DNA of 35,094 nucleotides, from assembly GCA_050012475.1 (NCBI GenBank), contig JBEKHC010000051.1, forward strand, positions 1 to 35,094, given 5' to 3'. Source of the DNA: Candidatus Velthaea sp. (GTDB taxonomy: Bacteria; Vulcanimicrobiota; Vulcanimicrobiia; Vulcanimicrobiales; Vulcanimicrobiaceae). Shown here in pieces: positions 2,347 to 34,312 of this stretch; within the stretch, counting starts at the first letter, position 1; each line of letters begins with the position of its first letter. The notes beneath the pieces were generated by a model, which made no database searches, had not been told where the DNA came from, and saw only the letters and a program-made list of their open reading frames with translations. The position numbers were made by a program, and so were the translations under genes.

Positions 2347-2564
2347 GAATGTCGTTGCACGCATAGCAAAATAAATCTGCCGCACGAGGATTTGCAGCAG
2401 GGAGCGCAGGCACGAAGACGAGCGTTTCTTATCATTCGCAGCACTCGCGGCCGCCGACTCAATGCTCTCCACACAACTTAAGGCGGCGCGGCATTTCATC
2501 AGGCGCAGCCAAACGTCGTGTTCCAAGACAGTGGCAAGGTGGCTTTACTCGTAGAAGGATCGCA

Positions 2565-2945
2565 ATGGCTCGTCACTTCGATCGGACGTTTCATCGATTG
2601 CGATCGCAAATTGCATACCTGCGAAGCGCGGGGGAACGCGTCGGCACGCACGACGTCTTCGACATTTCGACCGGGCGTTATGCGAGCGCGGCACCATTGC
2701 CGATCGGACGCGATCACATGGGCCTGGTTCCGTTCTCCGGGCAGCTCTACGCGATCGCCGGGCGCATCGACGACTTCGACCACATTACTTCCTACGTCGA
2801 CGTCTGCGATCGGCGAAAGATGCGAAGCGGCATGGCCGTCGCACTCTATCGTGAGCGCTTCTTCGCGATCGACGGCGAGCGCCGCGGCGGTACGTGCAGG
2901 GCCGGCACGGCACGGGCGCTGTTCGTCTTTGGCTTGCCGGAATGA
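2565..2945 (+). pseudogene. Kelch-repeat (beta-propeller) protein remnant
   Basis: About 1.5-2 Kelch blades are visible (THDVFDISTGRYASAAPLPIGRDHMGLVPFSGQLYAIAGR...YVDV and RSGMAVALYRERFFAIDGE). The W...APMP linker is missing between them, and the fragment is too short for a propeller. Confidence 0.7.
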
Positions 2946-2950
2946 TCCGG

Positions 2951-4636
2951 CTACGGAACGATCCAGCTCGAAATTGCCGGCAGCGATTCGACCATTGAGA
3001 TGAGGCACATCAGCACGAGCAGACCTAAACTCCAGCCGACGACTCTGCGGAAGATCGCGCCTTCGGAGCCCACGAGTTTGACGGTTGCGGCCGCCACCGC
3101 CAGCGACTGAACGCTGATGGCTTTGGCGACCACCCCGCCCGACGAATTCGACGCCGCCGCCAGGACCGGGGAGATCCCGGTCTGCTTCGCAGCGGCGGTC
3201 TGAAGATTGCCGAACAGCACGTTCGCCGACGAGTCGGACCCGGTCAGCGCCGAGCCGATCCAACCGATCACCGGAGAAATGAACGCAAATGCGGTGCCGC
3301 CGACGCCGGCTAGAAAGAGCCCGAGCGTCGTGGTTTGTCCGGACAGATTTGCGACATAGGCCAAAGCGAAGATCGACATCACGGTGAGTGCCGCCGACCC
3401 GAGCTGGCGCAGCGTGGCGCTGAACGAACGCAGCGCGCCGGAGAAGCCGACGCCCAGAGCGAGCGACGTGAGAATCCCGCAGATGAACAATAATGTCCCC
3501 GTGGCCGGCAGCCAATTGAAACGATAGACCGTGGCGATCGTTTTCCCCGCGCTGCTCGCGAGGTCGAGACCGGGCCAACTGAAGACCACGACGCCCTTGC
3601 CGAGCAGACCTTTGAGCGGCTCGAACTGGACGGCGACGAAGACGAAGATGATGATTAAATACGGTGCGAACGCCTGAAGGACGGTTGCTCCGGTAAAGGG
3701 GATGTCGCGGCCGCCTTCGGTTTCGACATGCACGTGATCGCCGCTCGGCGCGACGGCCGCGGCCGGGGCTGACGCCACCGGCCGGCCCGGTGCAGCCGAG
3801 GGCGGAGCCCAGCTCGACCGGCCGACGAGGCGCAGATAACCGAGCAGCGCGACCGCCGACGTCAGCGACGCCAACACGTCGGCCAACTGCACCGAGATAA
3901 AATTCGATGCCAGGAATTGCATCCCGGCGAACGCTAAGCCGGCCACCAGCGCGACGCGCCACTCCGCGCGCAACGCAGCCGGTCCGCCGATGACGATCAG
4001 CAACACGAAGGGGACGAGCAGCGCGAGCATGGGGGTTTGCCGGCCGACCATCGCGCCGAGTTCCGAGAGCGGCAAGCCGGTCGTGGTCGACAGCGCCACC
4101 AATGGAAGCGCGAGCGTACCAAACGCGACCGGGACGGAGTCGGCGATGAGCGCTGCGACCGCGGCTTTGACCGGCGCAAAGCCGATGCCGACGAGCATCG
4201 CCGCGCAGATGGCGACCGGCGCGCCCGCGCCGATGAGTCCTTCGAGCAGCCCGCCGAAGCAATACGCGATGATGAGGACCTGCACTTCGTTCGTGTCGCC
4301 GATACGCAGAAACACCTGACGGAGCACGGAAAAGTGCCCGCTCTCGACCGTCGTATTGTAGATCCAGATCGCGTTGACGATCACCCACAGGACCGCCAGC
4401 ACGCCGAACGCTGCCCCGTAGATTGCGACGTTGATCGCGGTGAGCGCGTTCATCCCGTACCCGGCGGCAGCGATGATGATGGCGGCCAGCAAAGCCGCAC
4501 CGGTCGCGCGTTCGGCGCGCCACGATAATCCGCCGAGCAGGACGAACAGCACGACGATCGGGACGGCGGCAACGAGCGACGACCACGCCAGCGATCCCGC
4601 GATCGGATTGGTGACTTGATGAAACACGGCGCTCAC
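2951..4636 (-). CDS. L-lactate permease (LctP/GlcA family)
   Basis: About 14 TM segments with the family motifs FGGLLEG...GAGAPVAI, PVAFGTLALP, LTGSDSSANVLFGNLQ, SSGGVVAKAISVQSLAVA and GSEGAIFR. Confidence 0.92.
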   Translation of the reverse strand: MSAVFHQVTNPIAGSLAWSSLVAAVPIVVLFVLLGGLSWRAERATGAALLAAIIIAAAGYGMNALTAINVAIYGAAFGVLAVLWVIVNAIWIYNTTVESGHFSVLRQVFLRIGDTNEVQVLIIAYCFGGLLEGLIGAGAPVAICAAMLVGIGFAPVKAAVAALIADSVPVAFGTLALPLVALSTTTGLPLSELGAMVGRQTPMLALLVPFVLLIVIGGPAALRAEWRVALVAGLAFAGMQFLASNFISVQLADVLASLTSAVALLGYLRLVGRSSWAPPSAAPGRPVASAPAAAVAPSGDHVHVETEGGRDIPFTGATVLQAFAPYLIIIFVFVAVQFEPLKGLLGKGVVVFSWPGLDLASSAGKTIATVYRFNWLPATGTLLFICGILTSLALGVGFSGALRSFSATLRQLGSAALTVMSIFALAYVANLSGQTTTLGLFLAGVGGTAFAFISPVIGWIGSALTGSDSSANVLFGNLQTAAAKQTGISPVLAAASNSSGGVVAKAISVQSLAVAAATVKLVGSEGAIFRRVVGWSLGLLVLMCLISMVESLPAISSWIVP

Positions 4637-4645
4637 ATCAGCCGC

Positions 4646-5407
4646 TCAGTGGATGTGCGAGCCGCCGTTGATATCGTAGGTGACGCCCGTGAGATAAGCA
4701 GCGTCGTCGCTGGCCAAAAAGGCAAAGAGCGCCGCCACTTCTTCCGCCGTGCCCTGGCGCCCGAGCAAAACGTCCGCGGCCAGCGATGCCTCGCGTTCAG
4801 GCGTGGTCAGTCCCGCGCGGATGTCGGTGTCGATGACTCCCGGTGCCACGGCATTGACCGTCACGCCAGTCGGCCCCAACTCGCGCGCCAGCGCCCGTGT
4901 CAATCCGAGGATCGCCGCTTTTGCGGCCGAGTACGGCACGCCGCCGAACACCCCGCCGCCGCGGATCGCCGACACCGACGACATGTTGACGATCCGTCCG
5001 TCGTGCGCTGCGACCAGCAGCGGGGTGACGCGCTTGGTGACGATGTAGGTGCCGGTGGCGTTGATGCGCATGACGCGCTCCCATTCCGCGAGCGTCGTCT
5101 GGAGAAAGCGCGTCGGCGACGTAATGCCGGCGATGTTGAACAAGGCTCGGATCGGCGGAAGCTTCCGCTCGACTTCGCTCACCGCGGCGTCCACCGATCC
5201 CTCGTCGGTCACGTCGGCACCGAGCCCGACCGTCGGGACGCCGTGCAATTTCGCGATCTCAGCGGCGCCGGCCCGGGCCTGCTCGGCGTCGAGATCGAGC
5301 AGCGCGACGGCCCACCCGTCCCGCGCCATTCGGGTTGCGGCGGCGCGGCCGATGCCGCGCGACGATCCCGCGCCGGTGACGATAACGGTGCGCATTGTGT
5401 CGGCCAC
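4646..5407 (-). CDS. SDR family NAD(P)-dependent oxidoreductase
   Basis: TGAGSSRGIG Rossmann motif, NIAGI, catalytic YSAAK, VNAVAPGVIDT and an AAGGAG RBS before the GTG start. Confidence 0.95.
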   Translation of the reverse strand: MADTMRTVIVTGAGSSRGIGRAAATRMARDGWAVALLDLDAEQARAGAAEIAKLHGVPTVGLGADVTDEGSVDAAVSEVERKLPPIRALFNIAGITSPTRFLQTTLAEWERVMRINATGTYIVTKRVTPLLVAAHDGRIVNMSSVSAIRGGGVFGGVPYSAAKAAILGLTRALARELGPTGVTVNAVAPGVIDTDIRAGLTTPEREASLAADVLLGRQGTAEEVAALFAFLASDDAAYLTGVTYDINGGSHIH

Positions 5408-5463
5408 GCATCTTCTCCTTACTGATGACCACCGGCGTTTCGGCCGGCAGTGTGAACGAACGA

Positions 5464-6318
5464 TCAGCGCGCTTGAGCGGGCGCTTTCGTCAGCAGATTC
5501 GAGATGTAATCGCTCGCGCGCTCGGTTGCCGCCGGGCGATCGCCTTCCGCAACGTCGCGCGTTTCGAGTTCGAGTGCGTAGTGACCCGGATAGGCATGCT
5601 CTTTGAACGCTTCGAGCAGATCGGCAAAATCAACCTTGCCATTTCCGATGCTCAAATGGATGTCGCCGGGAACCGCGTCGCGCAGGTGAACGTGCACGAC
5701 GCGGTCATCGAGCGCGTCGAGATACGCGCGCGTGTCGTCCTCTGCCGCGACGACGTGGCTGACGTCGTAGACGATGCCGACGCGGCGGCGATCGAGCCGG
5801 CCGACGAGCGCCGTCGCCCGCCGCGCGTTATGACAAAAGCGCAGCGAATGAAGCGCCTCCACCCACAATTCGAATCCCGCTGCGCACACCGCGTCCGCGG
5901 CCCGATGCAGCTGGGCCGCGACGAGATCGAGGTCAGCGCTTTCACCGACGATCGGCTCGGATGCTAAGCGTCCGCACGGCAGCACGATTGCCCCCGAACC
6001 GGTCTCGCGTGCTAATTCGATAAGCGCGGCCACGTGCTCGTCGCGGGCGGCTTGTGCGGCGTCGTCGAGCGGCTCGTTGAGGTCGCCAACGTCGGCATTG
6101 ATGGACCGGACCGCCAATCCGCTGTCCTTGACCTGGCCGCCTACGAATCGAATCGCTTCAGCGTCGAGAACCATCGGCACGTGATCGCAGACGCCGGGCA
6201 GCGCGCCGAGATCGATCTCGGCAAACCCAAGCTCGCGAATGATCCGCAGCGCTTCGTCGAGCGGACGATGGCGGAAGGTGATGCTGGAACATCCGACGCG
6301 AGAATCCGGCGTGCTCAT
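5464..6318 (-). CDS. Sugar phosphate isomerase/epimerase (xylose-isomerase-like TIM barrel)
   Basis: Metal-ligand motifs WVEALH, YDVSHV, HVHLRDA, GNGKVDF and ALELE, with a GGAGG RBS. Confidence 0.9.
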   Translation of the reverse strand: MSTPDSRVGCSSITFRHRPLDEALRIIRELGFAEIDLGALPGVCDHVPMVLDAEAIRFVGGQVKDSGLAVRSINADVGDLNEPLDDAAQAARDEHVAALIELARETGSGAIVLPCGRLASEPIVGESADLDLVAAQLHRAADAVCAAGFELWVEALHSLRFCHNARRATALVGRLDRRRVGIVYDVSHVVAAEDDTRAYLDALDDRVVHVHLRDAVPGDIHLSIGNGKVDFADLLEAFKEHAYPGHYALELETRDVAEGDRPAATERASDYISNLLTKAPAQAR

Positions 6319-6495
6319 GGCTTTCCTCCGCTGCGTGGTCCAAGCGGTCGCGATCTACCCTTTTCCCTTCGGGGCTTTTTGCGTATCGCCTACCGATTTT
6401 GAGAGGCCGGCCAAGCACGACGCGGGGTGTATTCAAGCCTGCCTCCGGCTTCGTCGTCGGCGCGGCCGCGCGTCGGCGCAGCAACCACGGTACCG

Positions 6496-6639
6496 TCAGC
6501 GAACCCGGCTTTCGAGCAAGGTTTCGATTTCGATCGGCACGGATCGCGCCCGGATGCCGGAGGCGTGGTAGACCGCAGCGGCGATTGCCGGTGCGACGCC
6601 GGCGAGCCCGATCTCGCCCCCACCGCGCGCGCCGGCGCC
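6496..6639 (-). pseudogene. C-terminal remnant of a xanthine-dehydrogenase-family molybdopterin-binding subunit
   Basis: GARGGGEIGLAGVAPAIAAAVYHASGIRARSVPIEIETLL matches the conserved C-terminus G(A)KGxGE...AIANAVxxATGxRxRxLPI. Only about 47 codons remain and there is no start codon. Confidence 0.8.
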
Positions 6640-6640
6640 C

Positions 6641-7534
6641 TCAGTCGACGACGAGGACGATCTTTCCGCGGGTGTGACGGGTCTCGATCGCCGCTTGGGC
6701 GAGCCGCGCATCGGCCAGCGGAAACGTTTGTGCGATCTCCACGTGCAACGTCCCGTTCTCGAATAGCGCGCGCAGCGTGTCGAGCCGCTTCGCGCTCGGA
6801 GCCGATTCCGTGTGCGCGATCGTGATGCCCCGTTCGGCGCGGACTTCTTCGCCCACGAGCTCCGCCAAGCGCCCGCCGTCGCGCACGGCGTGAATCGTCG
6901 TTTTGGCGTTGTCGTCTCTCCCGACGCAGTCGAGCGCAGCATCGACGCCAGCCGGGGCGAACTTCTTCACTCCGGCAACGACGTCGCCCGCGGTATAATC
7001 GACGACGTCGGCGGCGCCGAGCGTGCGAACGTATTCGATGTTCGCCGTGCCGGCCGTCGCGATCACGCGGGCTCCGAGAACCTTGCCGGCGATCTGAACG
7101 GCCAGCGTCCCGACACCGCCGGAGGCACCCGCGATCAAGACCGTCTGCCCAGCCTCGACACGCAGCTCATCGACGAGCGCCTGATGGGACGTTATCCCAT
7201 CGACGGGGATGGCAGCCGCTTCGATGAACGAAAGGTTCTTGGGCTTGAGCGCGACGTCGTCGGCTTTCACGCAAACGTACTGCGCGTACGCGCCTTGGTC
7301 GCCGTAGAAATACGTATAGACCTCGTCACCTTCGTGCAGCGGCCCGTCAACGCCGGCGCCCACCGCGTCGACCATGCCGGAACACTCGGCGCCGACGCCC
7401 GCGGCGCGTACCCGGATGCGGACTTCGTCGGCTTCGGGCTCGGGCACCGGCAGTTCACGAAAGAGCAGTTTGTCGAGGCCGCCGTAGCCGTCGATCGCGA
7501 TCGCCTGCATGACCGCTTTGGTTTGTGTTGCCAT
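6641..7534 (-). CDS. NADPH:quinone oxidoreductase-like MDR family protein, with an apparent in-frame deletion
   Basis: Motifs EVRIRVRAAGV, GAYAQY, EAAAIP, AGASGGVGTLAVQIA, LGAADVVDY and GKIVL. ATG at 7534 chosen as the start. Confidence 0.9.
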   Translation of the reverse strand: MATQTKAVMQAIAIDGYGGLDKLLFRELPVPEPEADEVRIRVRAAGVGAECSGMVDAVGAGVDGPLHEGDEVYTYFYGDQGAYAQYVCVKADDVALKPKNLSFIEAAAIPVDGITSHQALVDELRVEAGQTVLIAGASGGVGTLAVQIAGKVLGARVIATAGTANIEYVRTLGAADVVDYTAGDVVAGVKKFAPAGVDAALDCVGRDDNAKTTIHAVRDGGRLAELVGEEVRAERGITIAHTESAPSAKRLDTLRALFENGTLHVEIAQTFPLADARLAQAAIETRHTRGKIVLVVD

Positions 7535-7666
7535 AGGCACGTCGTACCCGGCCGGCGCGTAAGTCCGTAAGACCGAAGGCAACTGTGTTCTCAATACTGG
7601 CGCTTTGCCGCGGCCTCGCTTACTCGAGCCCTCCCGCCGGAATTGGGTTTAGCACGCCGGCCCAGC

Positions 7667-8620
7667 TCAGGCGAGTGAAGCCGATGGCTCGCCCGACAGC
7701 GTTGCGATCAGTTCTGCCTTAACGATCTCGGCGCGGTCATTTGAGATTTGGCAGGTTCCGGCCGCGCGATGTCCGCCGCCGTCATACCGGAGGCACACGG
7801 CGCCGATATCGATAGACGAACTGCGATCCAGAATGGACTTGCCGATCGCGAAGACCGTATTTTGCTTCTTCAAGCCCCACATGACGTGAACCGAAATGTC
7901 GCACTCGGGAAAGAGCGCGTAGATGGAAAAACGGTTGCCCGCGTAGATGACGTCTTCCGCCCGAAGATCGATCAAGGCGAGCTTGCCGTAAACGGTCGTG
8001 CAGCGTCGAACTTGGTCGGTGAACCGGTCGCGGTGGGCACGGTAGAGGTCGACGCGCTCTTGCACGTCCGGAGTTTGCAGCACTTCTTCAATGCCGTGGT
8101 CGCGGCATTGGTCGATGAGGTGCATCATGAGATCGTAATTGGAGATGCGAAAGTCACGAAACCGGCCGAGCCCGGTCCGGGAGTCCATCAGAAAATTCAG
8201 CAGCACCCAACCCTGCGGGTTGAGGATCTCGTCACGCGTGAACTGCGCAGAATCCGCCTTGTCGACCGCCTCCATGAGCTCGGCGCTGATGCGCGGGAAG
8301 CTCTTTGCGCCGCCATAATGATTGAAGACGACGCGCGCCGCAGACGGCGCGGCCGGATCGATCACGTGATTTTGATACGTCCGCTCACCCTTGCGCGCAA
8401 TCTCGCTGGAGTGGTGGTCGAAGGCGATGTAGCAACCTTCGACATACGGAAGGTTCGTTACGATGTCGCGCGCGGTAATCTGCACGATGCCATCCTGCAT
8501 GTCTTTGGGATGGGCAAACGTGATGTCATCGATGAGATCCAACTCGCGCAGCAGCATGCCGCACACGAGGCCATCGAAGTCACTGCGAGTGACGAGACGA
8601 TATTTCTGAGGCGTCGCCAT
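7667..8620 (-). CDS. DHH-family phosphoesterase (NrnB/exopolyphosphatase-related)
   Basis: Motifs RLVTRSDFDGLVC, FDHHSSE and the C-terminal DHHA1 motif GGGHRAAGTCQ. Confidence 0.88.
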   Translation of the reverse strand: MATPQKYRLVTRSDFDGLVCGMLLRELDLIDDITFAHPKDMQDGIVQITARDIVTNLPYVEGCYIAFDHHSSEIARKGERTYQNHVIDPAAPSAARVVFNHYGGAKSFPRISAELMEAVDKADSAQFTRDEILNPQGWVLLNFLMDSRTGLGRFRDFRISNYDLMMHLIDQCRDHGIEEVLQTPDVQERVDLYRAHRDRFTDQVRRCTTVYGKLALIDLRAEDVIYAGNRFSIYALFPECDISVHVMWGLKKQNTVFAIGKSILDRSSSIDIGAVCLRYDGGGHRAAGTCQISNDRAEIVKAELIATLSGEPSASLA

Positions 8621-8705
8621 GGTTCGCGCACTTGCACGTTCGATCGGCGAAAGCATGCCGGCACCGTGCTAAGACTTCGTTACGCGGGCTGAATCAGAGC
8701 ATCCC

Positions 8706-9403: not shown

Positions 9404-9853
9404 TCACTCCGGGCCGTCGTCGAAATCGAGCAGGCGGGGACCCGCGCCCTCTTGCCCCAGGACATCCATCGGATTGCGCAGCGGACAACTCCGTACCGAC
9501 AAACAGCCGCAACCGATGCAATCTCCGAGTTGATCGCGGAGCGCCGTCAGCCGCCGGATGCGGTCGTCGAGATCGCCCTTCCACCGCTTGGACAACCGCG
9601 CCCAATCTTTCGCTGAAACAGCACGCTCCGTCGGCAGCGTCGCCAACGCGTCGCGAATCTCGCCCAGCGAAATGCCGGCCCGTTGAGCTACCTTGATGAC
9701 CGCGATGCGCCGCAACTCCGAGCGCGCAAAACGACGCTGGTTTCCGGCGGTGCGAGAACTGCTGATCAGCCCTTTGGCTTCGTAAAAATGGATCGCGGAA
9801 ACGGCGACCCCGCTGCGGGCCGCTATTTCACCGACGGTCAAAAATTCGGTCAT
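9404..9853 (-). CDS. soxR: Redox-sensitive transcriptional activator SoxR
   Basis: MerR HTH ([26 protein letters not shown]...GNQRRF) and the [2Fe-2S] motif [17 protein letters not shown]. Confidence 0.97.
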
Positions 9854-9857
9854 GCTC

Positions 9858-9888
9858 TTGACATCAACATTACTTGAGGTTGTACGGT
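9858..9888 (+). promoter_or_regulatory. SoxR-dependent promoter with SoxR box (9862-9879)
   Basis: -35 TTGACA (9858-9863), a 19-bp spacer and -10 TACGGT (9883-9888). CATCAACATTACTTGAGG matches CCTCAAGTTAACTTGAGG at 14/18 positions. Confidence 0.9.
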
Positions 9889-9896
9889 TGCGGCAA
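9867..9896 (-). promoter_or_regulatory. Putative divergent soxR promoter overlapping the SoxR box
   Basis: Minus strand reads TTGCCG (9896-9891), N18, TAATGT (9872-9867), ending 13 nt before the soxR ATG. Confidence 0.5.
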
Positions 9897-9897
9897 G

Positions 9898-10623
9898 ATG
9901 AATACTTGGTTTGAATCCGGACACGTTGCCATCGTCACCGGCGGCTCCCGGGGCTTGGGCAAAGCTCTGGCCCGCGAACTCGCCGCCCATGGCCTGCACA
10001 CGATCATCGACGGCCGCGATCGGCGTTCGCTCGACGCAGCGAGCGCCGACCTGAGGCGATTCGGCAACGTCAGCGCGATTGCCGGCGACGTGACGCGCAG
10101 CGAGCACGTCCGCGCGCTCTTTGACGAAGCGCGGCGGTTGGGACGGTTGGATCTGGTGGTCAACAACGCATCGACCCTCGGTGCCGTCCCGCTGCCGCGG
10201 ATGAATGACATCGCTCACCGTACGTTGGCCCATCTCTTCGACGTCAACGTCTTCGCGCCGATCCATCTCATGCAGCATGCGCTGGCGTTTTGGCGGCAAA
10301 ACGGGGGCGCCGGCACGCTCGTCAACATCACGTCGGATGCGGCCGTGGAGCCCTATGCGAGCTGGGGCGGTTACGGCGCGGCCAAAGCCGCGCTCGAGCA
10401 TGTCTCGCGCGTTCTCGCCGTCGAGTTGGAAGCTGCGCGCGTCCGCGTCTTGGTGGCGGATCCGGGTGACATGAACACCCAAATGCACCGCGACGCAATC
10501 CCCGATGCGGATCCGCAGTCGCTGCGGGATCCGGCCGAGTCGGCTCGCGCGCTGATGCATGCGATCGCGACGATGGACGGTCCGTACCAACGCGTGCGCC
10601 TGAGCGACCTGGTGATCGCGTGA
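9898..10623 (+). CDS. SDR family oxidoreductase (SoxR-regulated)
   Basis: Motifs [21 protein letters not shown], catalytic YGAAK and DPGDMNTQM. The ATG lies 9 nt after the -10, so the transcript is near-leaderless. Confidence 0.93.
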
Positions 10624-11621
10624 ACGTTCTTAGCGGCGCTTCGCGTTCGCTGCTCGATGCGGTCGCGCCGCCCGAACGTCGCGGCCTCGACCGCGATGCC
10701 GTCCGTCTGCTGGTCACCGATCGCGCAGCGGGCACGCATTCGCACGCGCGCTTCTTCCAACTGCCGGCCTTCCTGCGCACGGGCGACGTTCTCGTGGTCA
10801 ACGACTCCGCGACGCTGCCGGCCGCGTTACGGGCTCGGCGCATCAACGGCGAAGCGCTACCGCTGCACGTTGCGACAATGGTCGATCCGCGGCTCTGGAT
10901 GGCCGAGCCGCGCGGCACGGTCCTGTGCGGCGAGGAACTCCGTCTTCCCGGGAGAGCATCGGCGGTGATGATCGCGCCAGTCGAGCCCGAGCAGCCGCGG
11001 CTGTGGTACGCGTGGTTCGGACTTCCCTTGCCGATGTACGCATATCTTGCCGTTCACGGCGAGCCGATCCGGTACGGCTACGTGACCCAGAAGTTTCCGC
11101 TGAGCGACTACCAGACGATGTTTGCGCGTGAAACGGGATCGTCGGAGATGCCGTCGGCGGCGCGACCGTTCACGGTCCGAACCGTGAATGCCTTACAGCA
11201 ACGGGGGATCGAGATCGTGACGATCACGCTCCATTGCGGTCTTGCGAGCATGGAGCGTCCCGAACGCCCCGGACCGGAGCGCTATGCGGTCTCATATGAA
11301 GCCGCCGCTGCGCTCAATCCCGCGCGGTCCGAAGGGCGGCGCGCAATCGCCGTCGGAACGACCGCCGTCCGGGCGCTGGAAAGCTCACTGCAGCGCGGCC
11401 GCGTGGTCCCGTCCGCCGGATGGACCGATCTCGTCATCGATGAACGCCATGTGGTGCGGTCCGTCGACGGATTACTTTCGGGATTCCACGCTGCCGGCGC
11501 AACGCATCAATCGATTCTTCGCGCGTTTCTCGACAGCGATCTCTTGTCGACGGCGTACGATCAAGCAGCGATGCACGGCTACTATCAGCATGAGTTCGGC
11601 GATGTGCACCTTATCCTGTGA
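10620..11621 (+). CDS. QueA-family (SAM:tRNA ribosyltransferase-isomerase fold) divergent paralog
   Basis: QueA scaffold motifs RDAVRLLV, GDVLVVNDS, YQTMFA, ITLHCG, AVGTTAVRALES and FGDVHLIL. The GTG start overlaps the SDR stop (GTGA). Confidence 0.9.
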   Translation: MNVLSGASRSLLDAVAPPERRGLDRDAVRLLVTDRAAGTHSHARFFQLPAFLRTGDVLVVNDSATLPAALRARRINGEALPLHVATMVDPRLWMAEPRGTVLCGEELRLPGRASAVMIAPVEPEQPRLWYAWFGLPLPMYAYLAVHGEPIRYGYVTQKFPLSDYQTMFARETGSSEMPSAARPFTVRTVNALQQRGIEIVTITLHCGLASMERPERPGPERYAVSYEAAAALNPARSEGRRAIAVGTTAVRALESSLQRGRVVPSAGWTDLVIDERHVVRSVDGLLSGFHAAGATHQSILRAFLDSDLLSTAYDQAAMHGYYQHEFGDVHLIL

Positions 11622-11678: not shown

Positions 11679-12056
11679 TCAGCGCGTTTGCCGAGCCTTG
11701 GACCCGGCGTTGCAGCGTGCGATCCGGGCGTTCACGAGCTTGGCGACGAGTTCAGCCGGGAGCGGACGTTCGGATGAAAAGCGGACGGTACCCTTGCTGA
11801 TCTGGTAGCCTGCGAGTTCGTGCTCGAAATCCTGGATCACCGCGCCCGGATAGAACGCGCAGTGGTTTGCCGTCGCGCCGAACCAGACGAGCACCTTTCC
11901 GTCAAGTCGAAAGGCGGGCATCCGGTAGCTGATGCACTCCTGCGCGCGCGGCGCAGCAGCCTGGATCATCTGCCGCAGCGCCTCGAGCGCGACGCGCTGG
12001 TCGCCGGGCAGCGCGGTTAGGTACTCGTCGATTGATTCAACCGTTGCCTTGCGCAT
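11679..12056 (-). CDS. DUF1801 / YdhG-like protein
   Basis: SIDEYLTALPGDQRVALEALRQMIQAAAP...ECISYRMPAF...HCAFYP...SKGTVRF...PLPAELVAKLV. Confidence 0.88.
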   Translation of the reverse strand: MRKATVESIDEYLTALPGDQRVALEALRQMIQAAAPRAQECISYRMPAFRLDGKVLVWFGATANHCAFYPGAVIQDFEHELAGYQISKGTVRFSSERPLPAELVAKLVNARIARCNAGSKARQTR

Positions 12057-12198
12057 TTTGCTGAGTACCGATCGTACAGAGGTCTCGGGCGCAGCATCGT
12101 TTCGCGACGAACCGCGTCCTCGTGACGACAGCGAAACTTCCGAAGAACCTGCGCGCATTCCCGTACGCCAAAACCCGTCGCACGCGAGCTGCCGGAAT

Positions 12199-16396: not shown

Positions 16397-16529
16397 TGCC
16401 CCGAATCAGAAGCCGCTTTGTTGCGCTGCGCTCGCCGGCGGTGCGCCGGCCGGCTTCGACGCAAACGCGACCAACATCCGGTGGGTGCTCGCGGGCGCGC
16501 TCGGCCCGGGCTCGGCGGGAACGACGCGC

Positions 16530-17204
16530 TCAGGCGTGCCGGTCGGCGATGCCGCGCTGGCGTTGACCTTGCTGACGCGCCAAAATGAAGTCGTCGATCG
16601 CGTTCGCCTGCGCGAGGTTCGTGCGCAGCTCGATGCCCGCGAGAAATTTTCCACTCGGCTGCTGGACCGTGGGGCGCGCCAACGCTCCGATCACGGTGAA
16701 GGCGCACGTGCCGAGATCGAATTTAATTTCGACCAGCGTGCCGGTGCGAAGTTCGCGCGGCACCATGAGCGCAACTCCATTGCTGCTGATGTCGACCGTC
16801 GCACTCTTGGTGAACTCGCCGTAGCCGACGGCGTCGGGAGCGTACCGCCACAGCACCGGGAGCGCGTATTTCAGCCGAACGGTGCGCCGCCGGTCGTTCA
16901 CGCGCTGCAGGACCGTGATCTCGGGCGGCAAGGCGAAGCTCGCGGTTTGGCCCTCGATTTTCGTGCACGCAGCATGGAAACGGAAGCTGCCGCGCGCGTT
17001 GACGTAATTAAACAGGGCCGACGTTCCGACCGCGGCTCGGCTCGGACACCGAACCGCGATTTCGGTGCGGCCGATCGACTCGACCGGAACGGATTCCGTC
17101 TTGCCGCCCGTGGCAATGTCGACGAACGCGTTGAGCTCCGGCAAATGATCGCTGTTGACCGCTTTGCTCTTCGATCGGGAGCGCATCGCTTCAAAAAGAT
17201 TCAA
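16530..17204 (-). CDS. PilZ-domain c-di-GMP receptor (YcgR-like two-domain)
   Basis: RRRTVR (RxxxR) and DISSNG (DxSxxG) motifs, with a GGAGAGG RBS before the TTG start. Confidence 0.88.
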   Translation of the reverse strand: MNLFEAMRSRSKSKAVNSDHLPELNAFVDIATGGKTESVPVESIGRTEIAVRCPSRAAVGTSALFNYVNARGSFRFHAACTKIEGQTASFALPPEITVLQRVNDRRRTVRLKYALPVLWRYAPDAVGYGEFTKSATVDISSNGVALMVPRELRTGTLVEIKFDLGTCAFTVIGALARPTVQQPSGKFLAGIELRTNLAQANAIDDFILARQQGQRQRGIADRHA

Positions 17205-17370
17205 ACCAAGCCCCCTCTCCGCAAAGCGAGCGGCCGTGCAGATCGCTTTCCACTAGTCGAAACGTCGGCAAACGCGGCGCCCACGTTTAGCCGCCGGATC
17301 GTCCCCCGTGCAAAGAAGTCGCGAGTTCGGAGTCGAGGGCGCTGCGGCGCCGTCGCGGAAACGCGAGCGC

Positions 17371-18843
17371 ATGAGCGATATCGCGCCCGGCAAGCTCGAT
17401 CGCTGCTTCGCGAGCGCAACGCAGTTGGCCGCCGCGATCGCCCGGCGCGAGATCGGCTGCCTCGAAACCCTGGAAGCCTACCTCGCCCGTTTGGAAATAT
17501 ACGATCGCGCGCTCAACGCGGTCGTAGTTCGAGACGTCGAGCGCGCCCGGTGTCGCGCGCGGGCGCTCGACGCCGCCGCCGCGCCGACCGGCCCGCTGCA
17601 CGGCGTTCCGATAACGGTCAAAGAGAGTTTCGACGTCAGCGGGTTGCCCACGACCTACGGACTGACCGAGTACGCGCACGCGCTTGCCGCTCGCGATGCG
17701 GTGGCGGTGAACCGCCTCGAAGCGGCCGGCGCGGTCGTCTTCGGCAAAACGAACGTGCCCCGCTTGCTGCTCGATTGGCAAAGCTTCAACGACGTCTACG
17801 GCGTCACCAACAATCCATGGGACCTCACGAAAACCCCCGGCGGATCATCCGGAGGCGCCGCGGCGGCCGTTGCCGCCGGCCTTTGCGCGCTCGAACTCGG
17901 CAGCGACATCGGGGGTTCGGTTCGGGTGCCGGCCCACATGTGCGGCATCTTCGGCCACAAACCCAGCTGGGAGCTGCTGCCGATGATCGGGCATTCCCTG
18001 ACCGGCACGATTTCGCCGGTCGATATCGCCGCGATTGGCCCGTTGGCACGCTCGGTTTCCGACCTCGAATTGGCCGTGGATCTCCTCGCCGGACCCGATG
18101 CGGCCGATAGCGCTTTGCGCTGGACGCTACCGCAGCCGCGCGCGGCGTCGCTCGCAGGGATGCGCGTCGCCGTGTGGGCCGAAGATCCGGCATCGCCGAC
18201 CGACCCCGAAATTACCGCGCAACTGCACGATCTCGCCGCTTTTCTGGGGCGCCGCGGAGCACGGGTGCGATACACCCGGCCGGCCATCGACGCGGCCGAA
18301 GCGTACGAACTTTTTCTGATGTTGATCGCCGCCGTGATCGGAGCCCGGCTAACGCCCGAGCAGATCGAAGAAGCGCGTGCACGCTCGGCCGCGGCGGCGG
18401 ACGACCGCAGCGCCGATGCGATCCTCGACCGAAACTACGGGATGTCGCATCGCGAATGGCTGGCCCTCAATGAACGGCGGCACGTGATCCGCCGCGCTTG
18501 GCAGGGGTTCTTCGGTGAATTCGACGTGCTGCTGTGCCCGCCGTTCGGCAGCCCGGCCTTGCCCCACGATACGACCACTGTCCAGCGTGAGCGTCGCGTC
18601 ACCGTTGCCGGGCGCACGATGCCCTACAACAATCTCGGCTTTTGGCCGGGCGTCATCGGTGCTTACCACCTGCCCGCCACGGTCGCGCCGCTCGGGCTCA
18701 CGGAGGCCCAGCTTCCGATCGGCGTCCAGATCGTCGGCCCGTTGCACGGCGACCTGCAGACGTTGGCCCTGGCCGGGATCCTCGAACAAGAATGGCGCTC
18801 GTTCGTGCCGCCGCCCATGACGAGGGCAGCGGATTCCCGGTAG
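17371..18843 (+). CDS. Amidase signature family enzyme
   Basis: GPLHGVPITVKES, GKTNVP, TPGGSSGGAAAAVAAG and GSDIGGSVRVPA provide the Ser-cisSer-Lys triad. Confidence 0.95.
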   Translation: MSDIAPGKLDRCFASATQLAAAIARREIGCLETLEAYLARLEIYDRALNAVVVRDVERARCRARALDAAAAPTGPLHGVPITVKESFDVSGLPTTYGLTEYAHALAARDAVAVNRLEAAGAVVFGKTNVPRLLLDWQSFNDVYGVTNNPWDLTKTPGGSSGGAAAAVAAGLCALELGSDIGGSVRVPAHMCGIFGHKPSWELLPMIGHSLTGTISPVDIAAIGPLARSVSDLELAVDLLAGPDAADSALRWTLPQPRAASLAGMRVAVWAEDPASPTDPEITAQLHDLAAFLGRRGARVRYTRPAIDAAEAYELFLMLIAAVIGARLTPEQIEEARARSAAAADDRSADAILDRNYGMSHREWLALNERRHVIRRAWQGFFGEFDVLLCPPFGSPALPHDTTTVQRERRVTVAGRTMPYNNLGFWPGVIGAYHLPATVAPLGLTEAQLPIGVQIVGPLHGDLQTLALAGILEQEWRSFVPPPMTRAADSR

Positions 18844-33355: not shown

Positions 33356-34312
33356 TCAAGGACTCGCGGACGGCGAAGGAACGGCCGACGGCAAGGCAGG
33401 CGCCGGCGCCGCGCTCGCGGTTGCTTTCGAACTCGGTGAAAGCGACGGCGAAGGCGACGGTGACGGGGCCGGCGCGACGGCGTACAACGCGAAGACGACC
33501 GGACGGTTTGCACGCAAAGTCAAGTTTTCGGGCGTTGCGAGAAACGCGATATGCTCCGGCGGCAAAGCTGCGCTGCCGACACCCATGCCGATCGGCGGCG
33601 GGGTGAACGCTTGCGCACCGTTGGACATCCCGAACGGCGTAGGCATGGGCGTCGGAACCGGGGTCGCGCTCGGGAGCGACTGCGGACCAGGGCTGCTCAG
33701 ATCGCGCTCGGCAACGGCCAACCGATAGGTTTTGTCCTTGCGTTCGGGATCGTACAAGGCCAACGCGAAAACGTCGTCGCGATGCTTTGCGATGACGTCG
33801 CGCGGCACGTCGACGGCGATCTTGGGATATTGGGCAAACGCAATATCCGACGGCGCGAGCAAACTGATGAAGAACAGCGCGGTCGGCGCGCCCGCATCGT
33901 GTTTGGAATGACGTTTGGAACCCGCACTGAAATGCGGCGCGTCAGAAGGCTCGACGACGCTGGCCGTCACCCCGATCGACGCCGAGTTTCCGCCGCCCGC
34001 GTCGGCCGCGGCCGAGCTGGCCTTCGGATTCGGGGACGCCGACGGTGCCGCCGACGGTTTGGCAAACGCGATCGACCCGCCCCACCCGGCCACCGTCGGC
34101 AACGCTTGCGTGGCCGGGTTGGCGCCGACGGTGGCAACGTTGGAAGCCGACGACGGCGTCGGCGTCGCCGCTACCCCCGTGGCAAGACCTTGAGGGTTGG
34201 TTCCGTTCTGCAGCGTGCCCGGCAGCGTGCTCTGACCGCCGCCGATATTGCCCGAACAAGCTGCCAGAGCCGCACAACCGAGAAGCGGCCAAAAGACGCG
34301 TGCAAAGATCAT
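33356..34312 (-). CDS. Pro/Ser/Ala-rich lipoprotein, hypothetical
   Basis: Lipobox LAA-C, with (PS)n/(PT)n linkers around a globular core (FFISLL...FALALYDP). Confidence 0.75.
   Translation of the reverse strand: MIFARVFWPLLGCAALAACSGNIGGGQSTLPGTLQNGTNPQGLATGVAATPTPSSASNVATVGANPATQALPTVAGWGGSIAFAKPSAAPSASPNPKASSAAADAGGGNSASIGVTASVVEPSDAPHFSAGSKRHSKHDAGAPTALFFISLLAPSDIAFAQYPKIAVDVPRDVIAKHRDDVFALALYDPERKDKTYRLAVAERDLSSPGPQSLPSATPVPTPMPTPFGMSNGAQAFTPPPIGMGVGSAALPPEHIAFLATPENLTLRANRPVVFALYAVAPAPSPSPSPSLSPSSKATASAAPAPALPSAVPSPSASP

Follow-up and report, generated by a model that had tools for sequence, protein, structure and literature searches.

The locus and its SoxR-type promoter

The stretch of DNA analysed here, hereafter the window, is a 35,094-nt contig of Candidatus Velthaea sp. 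(phylum Vulcanimicrobiota), whose genome of 5.36 Mb is 93.8% complete (G000). It carries soxR and, divergent from it, a gene for a short-chain dehydrogenase/reductase (SDR) followed by a gene for a protein resembling QueA, the preQ1(34) tRNA S-adenosylmethionine (SAM) ribosyltransferase-isomerase (PF02547). The SDR and QueA-like genes form a conserved two-enzyme module that recurs next to redox or gas sensors and, judged by its sequence, the QueA-like protein is a member of a sister family of QueA and not QueA itself. The features of the locus are as follows.

9404-9853, minus strand: soxR, redox-sensing activator of the MerR family, 149 aa (TIGR01950)
9854-9897: intergenic gap of 44 bp between the divergent genes, from the soxR ATG to the SDR ATG
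9858-9863, plus strand: -35 element TTGACA of the SDR promoter
9862-9879: 18-bp SoxR box, overlapping the -35 element and within the 19-bp spacer, matching the SoxR consensus at 14/18 positions
9883-9888, plus strand: -10 element TACGGT, with the SDR ATG 9 bases downstream
9898-10623, plus strand: classical SDR, 241 aa (PF00106, E 9e-42)
10620-10623, plus strand: GTGA start/stop overlap of the SDR and QueA-like genes, translational coupling
10620-11621, plus strand: QueA-like gene, 333 aa (PF02547, 212.7 bits)

The initial annotation, made from the letters alone, had described the divergence of soxR and the SDR gene over 44 bp, the GTGA coupling of the SDR gene to a QueA-fold gene and a TTGACA-N19-TACGGT promoter with a 14/18 SoxR box facing the SDR gene, all of which were confirmed at the positions listed. 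The soxR product scored 219 bits against the equivalog model TIGR01950, above its cut-off of 116.9. Cys-X2-Cys-X-Cys-X5-Cys is the signature of the SoxR cluster (PMC4601167). It is visible in the translation of the window soxR and in 12/12 SoxRs that neighbour distant relatives of the pair.

SoxR targets carry an 18-bp box that overlaps the -35 element and a spacer of 19 nt (PMC8867992), and the window promoter has this geometry, an 18-bp dyad over the -35 element with a 19-nt spacer. The switch itself, SoxR and its promoter, is textbook. The box has four mismatches to the consensus in the window and two to four in 19 relatives with an adjoining soxR, and the -10 element agrees with TATAAT at just 3/6 positions. 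As evidence on its own, the 14/18 box was rejected: the genome holds two sites with at most four mismatches, against 12, 5 and 8 in three base shuffles. Because such a match is not above chance, the case for a SoxR site rests on position and conservation. The register of -35 element, box and -10 element between soxR and the SDR gene is identical in 19/19 of these relatives, all with TTGACC as the -35 element, and their first ATG lies 7 to 11 bases after the -10 element (19/19). A 31-bp matrix built from the 19 orthologous promoters found a single match in the 5.36-Mb genome, at the window site (40.8 bits). This conserved anatomy supports the earlier proposal that SoxR would control the pair.

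With the SDR ATG only 9 bases past the -10 element, the transcript made under SoxR probably has no leader, or almost none. A generic promoter scan did not find the SDR promoter because it was limited to spacers of 16-18 bp. Two RNA runs of one study contained 0.18 and 0.10 of the words. Five short RNA-library contigs fell on the SDR gene, the QueA-like gene and soxR; none bridged genes, and they were taken as evidence neither of transcription nor of co-transcription.

A sister family of QueA and its SDR partner

QueA-like proteins keep the fold of QueA. The predicted structure of the window protein (pLDDT 90.4) had full-length matches to QueA structures only (PDB 1wdi, 1vky and 1yy3; Foldseek E 4e-23, VIA Z 27.1), with both QueA domains kept; past QueA, the structure search returned just small beta-barrel matches (Z <= 6.3), and the ESM Atlas returned PF02547 clusters only. 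The protein nevertheless falls below both QueA equivalog cut-offs (TIGR00113, 122.7 bits vs 267.45; NF001140, 151.5 bits vs 324). It is not the sole queA of its genome, a possibility that the initial annotation had raised against its own proposal: the genome also encodes a canonical queA (401 bits, C19) and tgt (C18), and the QueA-like protein is 33.5% identical to the genome's own QueA. A quick tree was built from 106 rows (21/127 left out, nine of them canonical and 12 near-duplicate or unpublished), and in it a long branch with a support of 100 separated 100 QueA-like rows from six canonical QueA rows.

The two families were compared residue by residue (112 QueA-like vs 15 QueA sequences, columns at least 90% conserved). 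Thirty-four columns are at least 90% identical across both families, including GD..V.N, YQ, S...P.A, GTT..R.LE, H290 and the terminal GD. The QueA signature motifs tested (PLPPY, AAPTAGLHF, TF.P, NFHLP.S and YRF.S.GDAM), on the other hand, are replaced in the QueA-like family, where PLPPY becomes PIRY, AAPTAGLHF becomes EMPSA.RPF, NFHLP.S becomes G.HEP.A.HL and YRF.S becomes YLWHE. The family has gained the near-invariant residues H83, E96, E176, M177, R182, E212, E215, H296, H324 and E325, and the window protein has each of them. The family also has more conserved acidic columns (11, vs 6 in QueA) and has lost the QueA R69 and R322 columns. The missed cut-offs, the rewritten signature and the separate canonical queA and tgt bear out the earlier suspicion that this is not an ordinary queuosine enzyme. 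The family thus shares with QueA the fold, the two-domain build and 34 near-invariant columns, and differs from it in its sub-cut-off scores, its rewritten motifs with new His and Glu residues, its SDR partner, its frequent occurrence without tgt and its redox- or gas-sensor neighbours.

The distribution of tgt bears on the acceptor. Among 50 genomes picked from related loci, including 18 cultured actinomycetes, 22 have tgt and 14 have a QueA above the cut-off, while eight have tgt without such a QueA; tgt was found in one of the 18 cultured carriers and not found in the other 17. We also screened 201 evenly drawn Actinomycetota genomes, of which 50 carry the QueA-like gene and 151 do not. Here, tgt was found in 14/50 carriers and not found in 36/50, compared with its presence in 95/151 non-carriers; three of the carriers are unpublished (G218, G320 and G371), and without them the count is 14/47. 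Many of the sampled genomes are metagenome-assembled genomes (MAGs), so that the absence of a gene from any one of them is not conclusive, and related genomes do not count as independent observations. The QueA-like protein needs no tgt, and its acceptor is therefore not preQ1-tRNA. mnmG was not found in any of the four actinomycete carriers tested: in the cultured G152, G159 and G163, neither tgt nor mnmG was found, and in G151 tgt was present and mnmG was not found. A true queC was detected in only one of five genomes tested. The window's host genome (93.8% complete) has tgt and canonical queA with only weak PF06508 matches (<= 26.6 bits), which suggests that its queuosine precursors are probably salvaged and not synthesised by the cell.

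The database name of the protein is S-adenosylmethionine:tRNA ribosyltransferase-isomerase. With relatives at no fewer than 593 loci of the genome collection and in 50/201 Actinomycetota genomes, annotation of the family as queA would lead to false queuosine-pathway calls in genomes that lack tgt. In the full-text literature, we found no description of this family or of its regulatory pattern, although subscription queuosine reviews and SoxR-box surveys may list it; the accessible parts of PMC4146615, PMC8867992, PMC13602947, PMC1282579 and PMC9092360, and of the supplements of PMC5069765, do not describe it. QueA has been called a unique enzyme in turning the ribose of SAM into a carbocycle (PMC9092360), and the literature found describes no other reaction for the QueA fold. 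A small-molecule substrate, if true, would be new SAM chemistry.

The SDR is a member of a dedicated subfamily. In a 34-sequence alignment, the classical-SDR motifs TGxxxGxG, NNA and N-S-YxxxK are all present, the catalytic N117-S146-Y159-K163 is intact and R40 is invariant (34/34). A basic residue after strand 2 marks a preference for NADP(H) in SDRs, from which the enzyme is predicted to be of the NADP(H) type. Its best solved relative is a ketoreductase (E 6.5e-26).

Neighbours of the QueA-like gene were counted in the 80 best distant loci and in the 30 loci that the 50 actinobacterial carriers yielded. An SDR gene lies upstream in 76/80 and 30/30 of them, respectively, so that the synteny on which the initial annotation depended is common among relatives. 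The 4-nt overlap of the two genes recurs in 104/144 loci, a count that takes in the unpublished G128, G218, G320 and G371, on which no conclusion hangs. A joint structure prediction of the SDR and the QueA-like protein with SAM and NADP scored 0.00 and was counted neither way. Longer proteins joining both parts (32 in total, 10 of them aligned) were judged weak evidence of coupling and were not used: among the 10, six run out of the SDR frame past the PGDM motif and resemble frameshift artefacts, three from Streptomyces are in frame and degenerate, and one (P0221, on one short contig) looks intact. P0227, P0289 and P0290, from marine-named Streptomyces clusters, are in-frame SDR-QueA-like fusions without the SDR glycine motif and with several family-invariant residues lost; they are possibly a decayed or repurposed second copy.

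Several lineage-specific genes accompany the pair. In Rubrobacteraceae and Chloroflexota loci, a small gene that by eye resembles the VOC/glyoxalase fold (no NCBIfam match at 1e-8) lies between the SDR and QueA-like genes (L179:3428-3841, L191:3370-3834, L200:3501-3881 and L184:1110-1532). A superoxide dismutase gene is encoded immediately downstream of the pair at L200:5105-5769, a peroxiredoxin-looking gene (by eye) is divergent from it at L173:873-1412, and a protein-L-isoaspartate methyltransferase gene lies downstream of it at L029 and L042. A search of plasmids returned two records, one of them chromosome-sized and the other a canonical queA, with no sign of mobility.

SoxR and other sensors beside the pair

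SoxR is one of several regulators found next to the pair. In the window's phylum, the QueA-like gene is present in 28/151 genomes (including G000 and the unpublished G128). The other 27 loci divide into 14 with soxR and the box and 13 without; both are also found in 5/7 named loci, the named relatives being Vulcanimicrobiota (Eremiobacterota) MAGs. In the 80 best distant loci, soxR was detected in 12 and a SoxR-type promoter in 21; the promoter count had been 22 before the call at L165, with 11 mismatches, was dropped as false. For comparison, a box with at most five mismatches occurs in 21/2400 random 330-bp windows. All 10 distant neighbour SoxRs tested pass TIGR01950. In Nocardia, Amycolatopsis and Kribbella, the promoter occurs with no soxR next to it, and SoxR was encoded elsewhere in 5/5 genomes of this kind. 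The genomes in which SoxR or its promoter precedes the pair belong to Vulcanimicrobiota, Actinomycetota and, in one case, Acidobacteriota, and SoxR-linked rows occupy five separate places on the quick tree, on which gains and losses are not separable.

A scan for the SoxR promoter itself returned 109 loci, 20 of which have the QueA-like gene in view, nearly all in Vulcanimicrobiota; most of the others front different genes, and a SoxR promoter before unrelated genes is usual for this regulator. Among L050-L158, the same promoter stands before genes whose products, judged by eye from their N-termini, are VOC-like in Sphingomonadaceae and resemble NADPH-dependent FMN reductases in Acidobacteriota. 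The window system resembles non-enteric SoxR regulons, such as the six-gene regulon of Streptomyces coelicolor and divergent soxR-target pairs, in SoxR itself, in box and spacer geometry and in being small and including an oxidoreductase. It differs in that its target includes a QueA-fold protein and in that the promoter is seemingly the sole one of its kind in the genome (one match to a narrow matrix). The main text of the S. coelicolor SoxR regulon paper, in its accessible part, makes no mention of queA or SCO180x.

In loci without SoxR, one of three other sensors is usually adjacent, two of them kinases with a GAF domain. One type, a GAF histidine kinase with three invariant Cys (CxC-X18/19-C, 16/16) that is accompanied by a NarL regulator, occurs in 10/12 extended Vulcanimicrobiota loci and in 10/80 best distant loci. 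A palindrome was found in 6/13 loci examined. It has the form CTGTCC-N4-GGACAG and is located between the genes for the NarL regulator and the SDR (upstream of the SDR gene in the range L026-L038, and at L041:4109, L042:4212, L045:3291, L046:3292, L047:3088 and L049:3099), and at L044 it persists though the regulator lies further away. This palindrome is likely to be the operator of the Cys-GAF two-component system. The [2Fe-2S] motif of AirS is Cys-X7-Cys-X-Cys-X17-Cys, in the N-terminal region (PMC4601167). Compared through this motif description rather than an AirS sequence, the Cys-GAF kinase resembles its last three Cys and does not match the full motif, as the first Cys is not conserved and three of the four are kept. 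No informative solved relatives of the Cys-GAF domain were found.

DosS-like kinases form a second type (19/80 best distant loci). Their GAF domain matches the GAF-A domain of DosT/DevS (E 6e-27; 2vzw and 2y8h) with the His-Pro of DosS/DosT aligned, this His being, we presume, the heme ligand, and it is single rather than tandem. A SufR-like regulator, a helix-turn-helix protein with a conserved HNC and two further Cys, was detected in 8/80 best distant loci. It scored 72.6-107.3 bits against TIGR02702, a cyanobacterial model, and remained below the cut-off of 178.8 in 5/5 cases tested. Its gene follows the QueA-like gene in the Acidimicrobiia-type loci L168, L178, L185, L189, L198, L208 and L228, and is divergent from the SDR gene at L214, a Deinococcaceae locus. 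Known SufR proteins sense through an iron cofactor. Iron cofactors are likewise what known SoxR, AirS and DosS proteins rely on to sense redox state, O2 or NO (PMC4601167). A SoxR promoter and a kinase or response regulator were never found together (0/80 and 0/30 loci). The initial annotation had taken the pair for a module of a SoxR regulon; the conserved SoxR promoter agrees with this, but the description is too narrow, since a GAF kinase is found in 29/80 and a SufR-like regulator in 8/80 loci, vs soxR in 12/80 and a SoxR-type promoter in 21/80.

Annotation, sizes and gene order, rather than sequence, were the basis for linking SCO1801-SCO1804 of S. coelicolor to the family. This cluster (NarL regulator, kinase, oxidoreductase and 'QueA') has the one-operon pair beside a divergent kinase/NarL pair, laid out as in Streptomyces L215, and differs from the window in having a kinase in place of SoxR. 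SCO1804 has been listed as QueA (PMC4932002), SCO1802/SCO1801 as an uncharacterised pair beside it (PMC9739842), and a homologue of SCO1803 is listed in a mutation table (PMC11272600). SCO1802, SCO1803 and SCO1804 load on co-expression component 60 (0.08, 0.16 and 0.14; 27 genes), with a small sub-threshold weight of 0.04-0.05 on the actinorhodin component, and at the lowest phosphate level SCO1803-1804 are up by about three units on the log scale of the table (PMC11538686). Proteins from both genes of the pair have been detected, for the most part in M145 with glycerol (PMC7244524). SCO1803-1804 are genetically tractable.

Possible reactions of the pair

The regulatory pattern provides what orphan enzymes usually lack, an inducing condition, and redox-cycling compounds should induce the pair in cultured Amycolatopsis, Kribbella and Nocardia with the SoxR promoter. 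Oxidation of the [2Fe-2S] cluster of SoxR would, as the promoter sequence strongly suggests, switch on the promoter with its 19-bp spacer and yield one transcript of the coupled SDR and QueA-like genes. The QueA-like protein, as a tgt-independent sister of QueA, would act on an acceptor other than preQ1-tRNA, and together these two steps appear highly probable. Its retained QueA core may then bind SAM and transfer the ribose of SAM, as a cyclopentyl (C5) unit, to a nucleophile such as a small amine in a newly acidic, His-rich pocket, and the NADPH-type SDR could reduce a carbonyl on the acceptor or product. Such a route might serve to remove or label a compound that accumulates during redox or gas stress. 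Taken as a whole, an inducible redox-stress module in which a C5 unit from SAM is passed to a small acceptor other than tRNA, with the SDR in the same route, is a tentative reading, to which we give somewhat less than an even chance. It is more doubtful that the family represents a second class of SAM ribosyltransferase-isomerase, forming a cyclopentyl adduct of a small molecule instead of tRNA and acting with its dedicated NADPH reductase in a general redox- or gas-stress pathway, which soil bacteria would have brought repeatedly under four unrelated iron-cofactor sensors (SoxR, Cys-GAF, DosS-like and SufR-like). Phenazines and quinones are what SoxR senses, and nothing marks them as substrates.

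Several observations weigh against C5 transfer to a small acceptor under sensor control. Conserved basic columns are nearly equal in the two families (eight in QueA-like vs nine in QueA), as is mean net charge (-1.8 vs -0.7 per 100 aa), and a loss of RNA binding is therefore not a simple explanation. The QueA-invariant motifs that changed (PLPPY, AAPTAGLHF, NFHLPxS and YRFxS) lie beside the shared core, which means that the chemistry may have been altered along with them. The SAM-binding residues of QueA are themselves putative. As of 2005, there was no solved QueA-SAM complex (PMC1282579). Clustering of the neighbours at 98 loci revealed regulators and lineage-specific genes only, and no third gene that recurs with the pair and would name a substrate. 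None of the regulators described above is present at 18/80 loci, some of which have short flanks, and control by the Cys-GAF, DosS-like and SufR-like sensors is suggested by adjacency, plus the palindrome in 6/13 loci. In S. coelicolor, component 60 is labelled uncharacterised, and the SCO genes lie outside the SoxR, OsdR and SigR components (PMC11538686).

With regulation and pairing unchanged, the chemistry could differ: the new His/Glu set may form a metal site or serve in acid-base catalysis, in which case the protein would be an isomerase, lyase or hydrolase acting on a redox-damaged metabolite that the SDR then reduces, with SAM no longer the donor. Five His and eleven acidic columns conserved at 90% or more in the 112 QueA-like sequences, most of them absent in QueA, agree with this reading, as do the small VOC-like genes between the pair in some Rubrobacteraceae and Chloroflexota loci; the QueA core motifs retained at 34 columns argue the opposite, and we consider it unlikely, though a serious contender. 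QueA chemistry frees adenine and methionine, and the pair could instead serve in SAM damage control, cleaving or rearranging SAM or damaged SAM with water to release both products, while the SDR reduces the C5 by-product. That would need no extra substrate gene and would fit a two-gene unit without a constant third partner, but methionine- or adenine-salvage genes do not recur nearby in the 98 clustered loci and the link to redox sensors is not directly explained, which makes this reading improbable.

An RNA (or protein amine) could also be modified independently of tgt, as a stress-induced change of translation. The QueA fold and both domains are kept, conserved basic residues remain, and in other bacteria tRNA modification has been linked to oxidative stress (PMC13602947). 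However, the two wobble-amine acceptors considered need tgt or mnmG. Neither gene was found in G152, G159 and G163, where the preQ1 and aminomethyl-uridine acceptors would both be unavailable, and in G151 tgt is present but mnmG was not found. Aminomethyl-uridine was accordingly rejected as an alternative RNA acceptor from the four carriers without detected mnmG. The conserved neighbours, moreover, are not translation genes, and we rate an RNA target slightly below SAM damage control. A back-up QueA that sustains queuosine synthesis under oxidative stress would agree with the database name, with the tgt found in 14/50 sampled carriers and with the 8/50 related-locus genomes that have tgt and lack an above-cut-off QueA. 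It is very improbable given that tgt was not found in 36/50 carriers and 17/18 cultured ones, that both cut-offs are missed and that a canonical queA is present in the genome. C5 transfer from SAM to a small acceptor is the reading that we tentatively prefer.

Elsewhere in the window, a DUF1801 gene (11679-12062, minus strand) converges on the QueA-like gene; it lies beside the operon in none of the related loci checked. Long open reading frames (ORFs) without a Pfam match at 1e-3, at 2499-4586 (minus strand, 695 aa), 16485-18110 (plus strand, 541 aa) and 33356-34312 (minus strand, 318 aa), may be shadow frames or orphan genes. A run of genes on the minus strand (4646-8656) is not tied to the operon in the relatives examined. 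It includes a second SDR gene (4646-5407), a xylose-isomerase-like TIM barrel (5464-6318, minus strand), a zinc-binding dehydrogenase/quinone-reductase-like gene (6641-7594, minus strand) and an ORF of 317-329 aa without a Pfam match that looks DHH-like.

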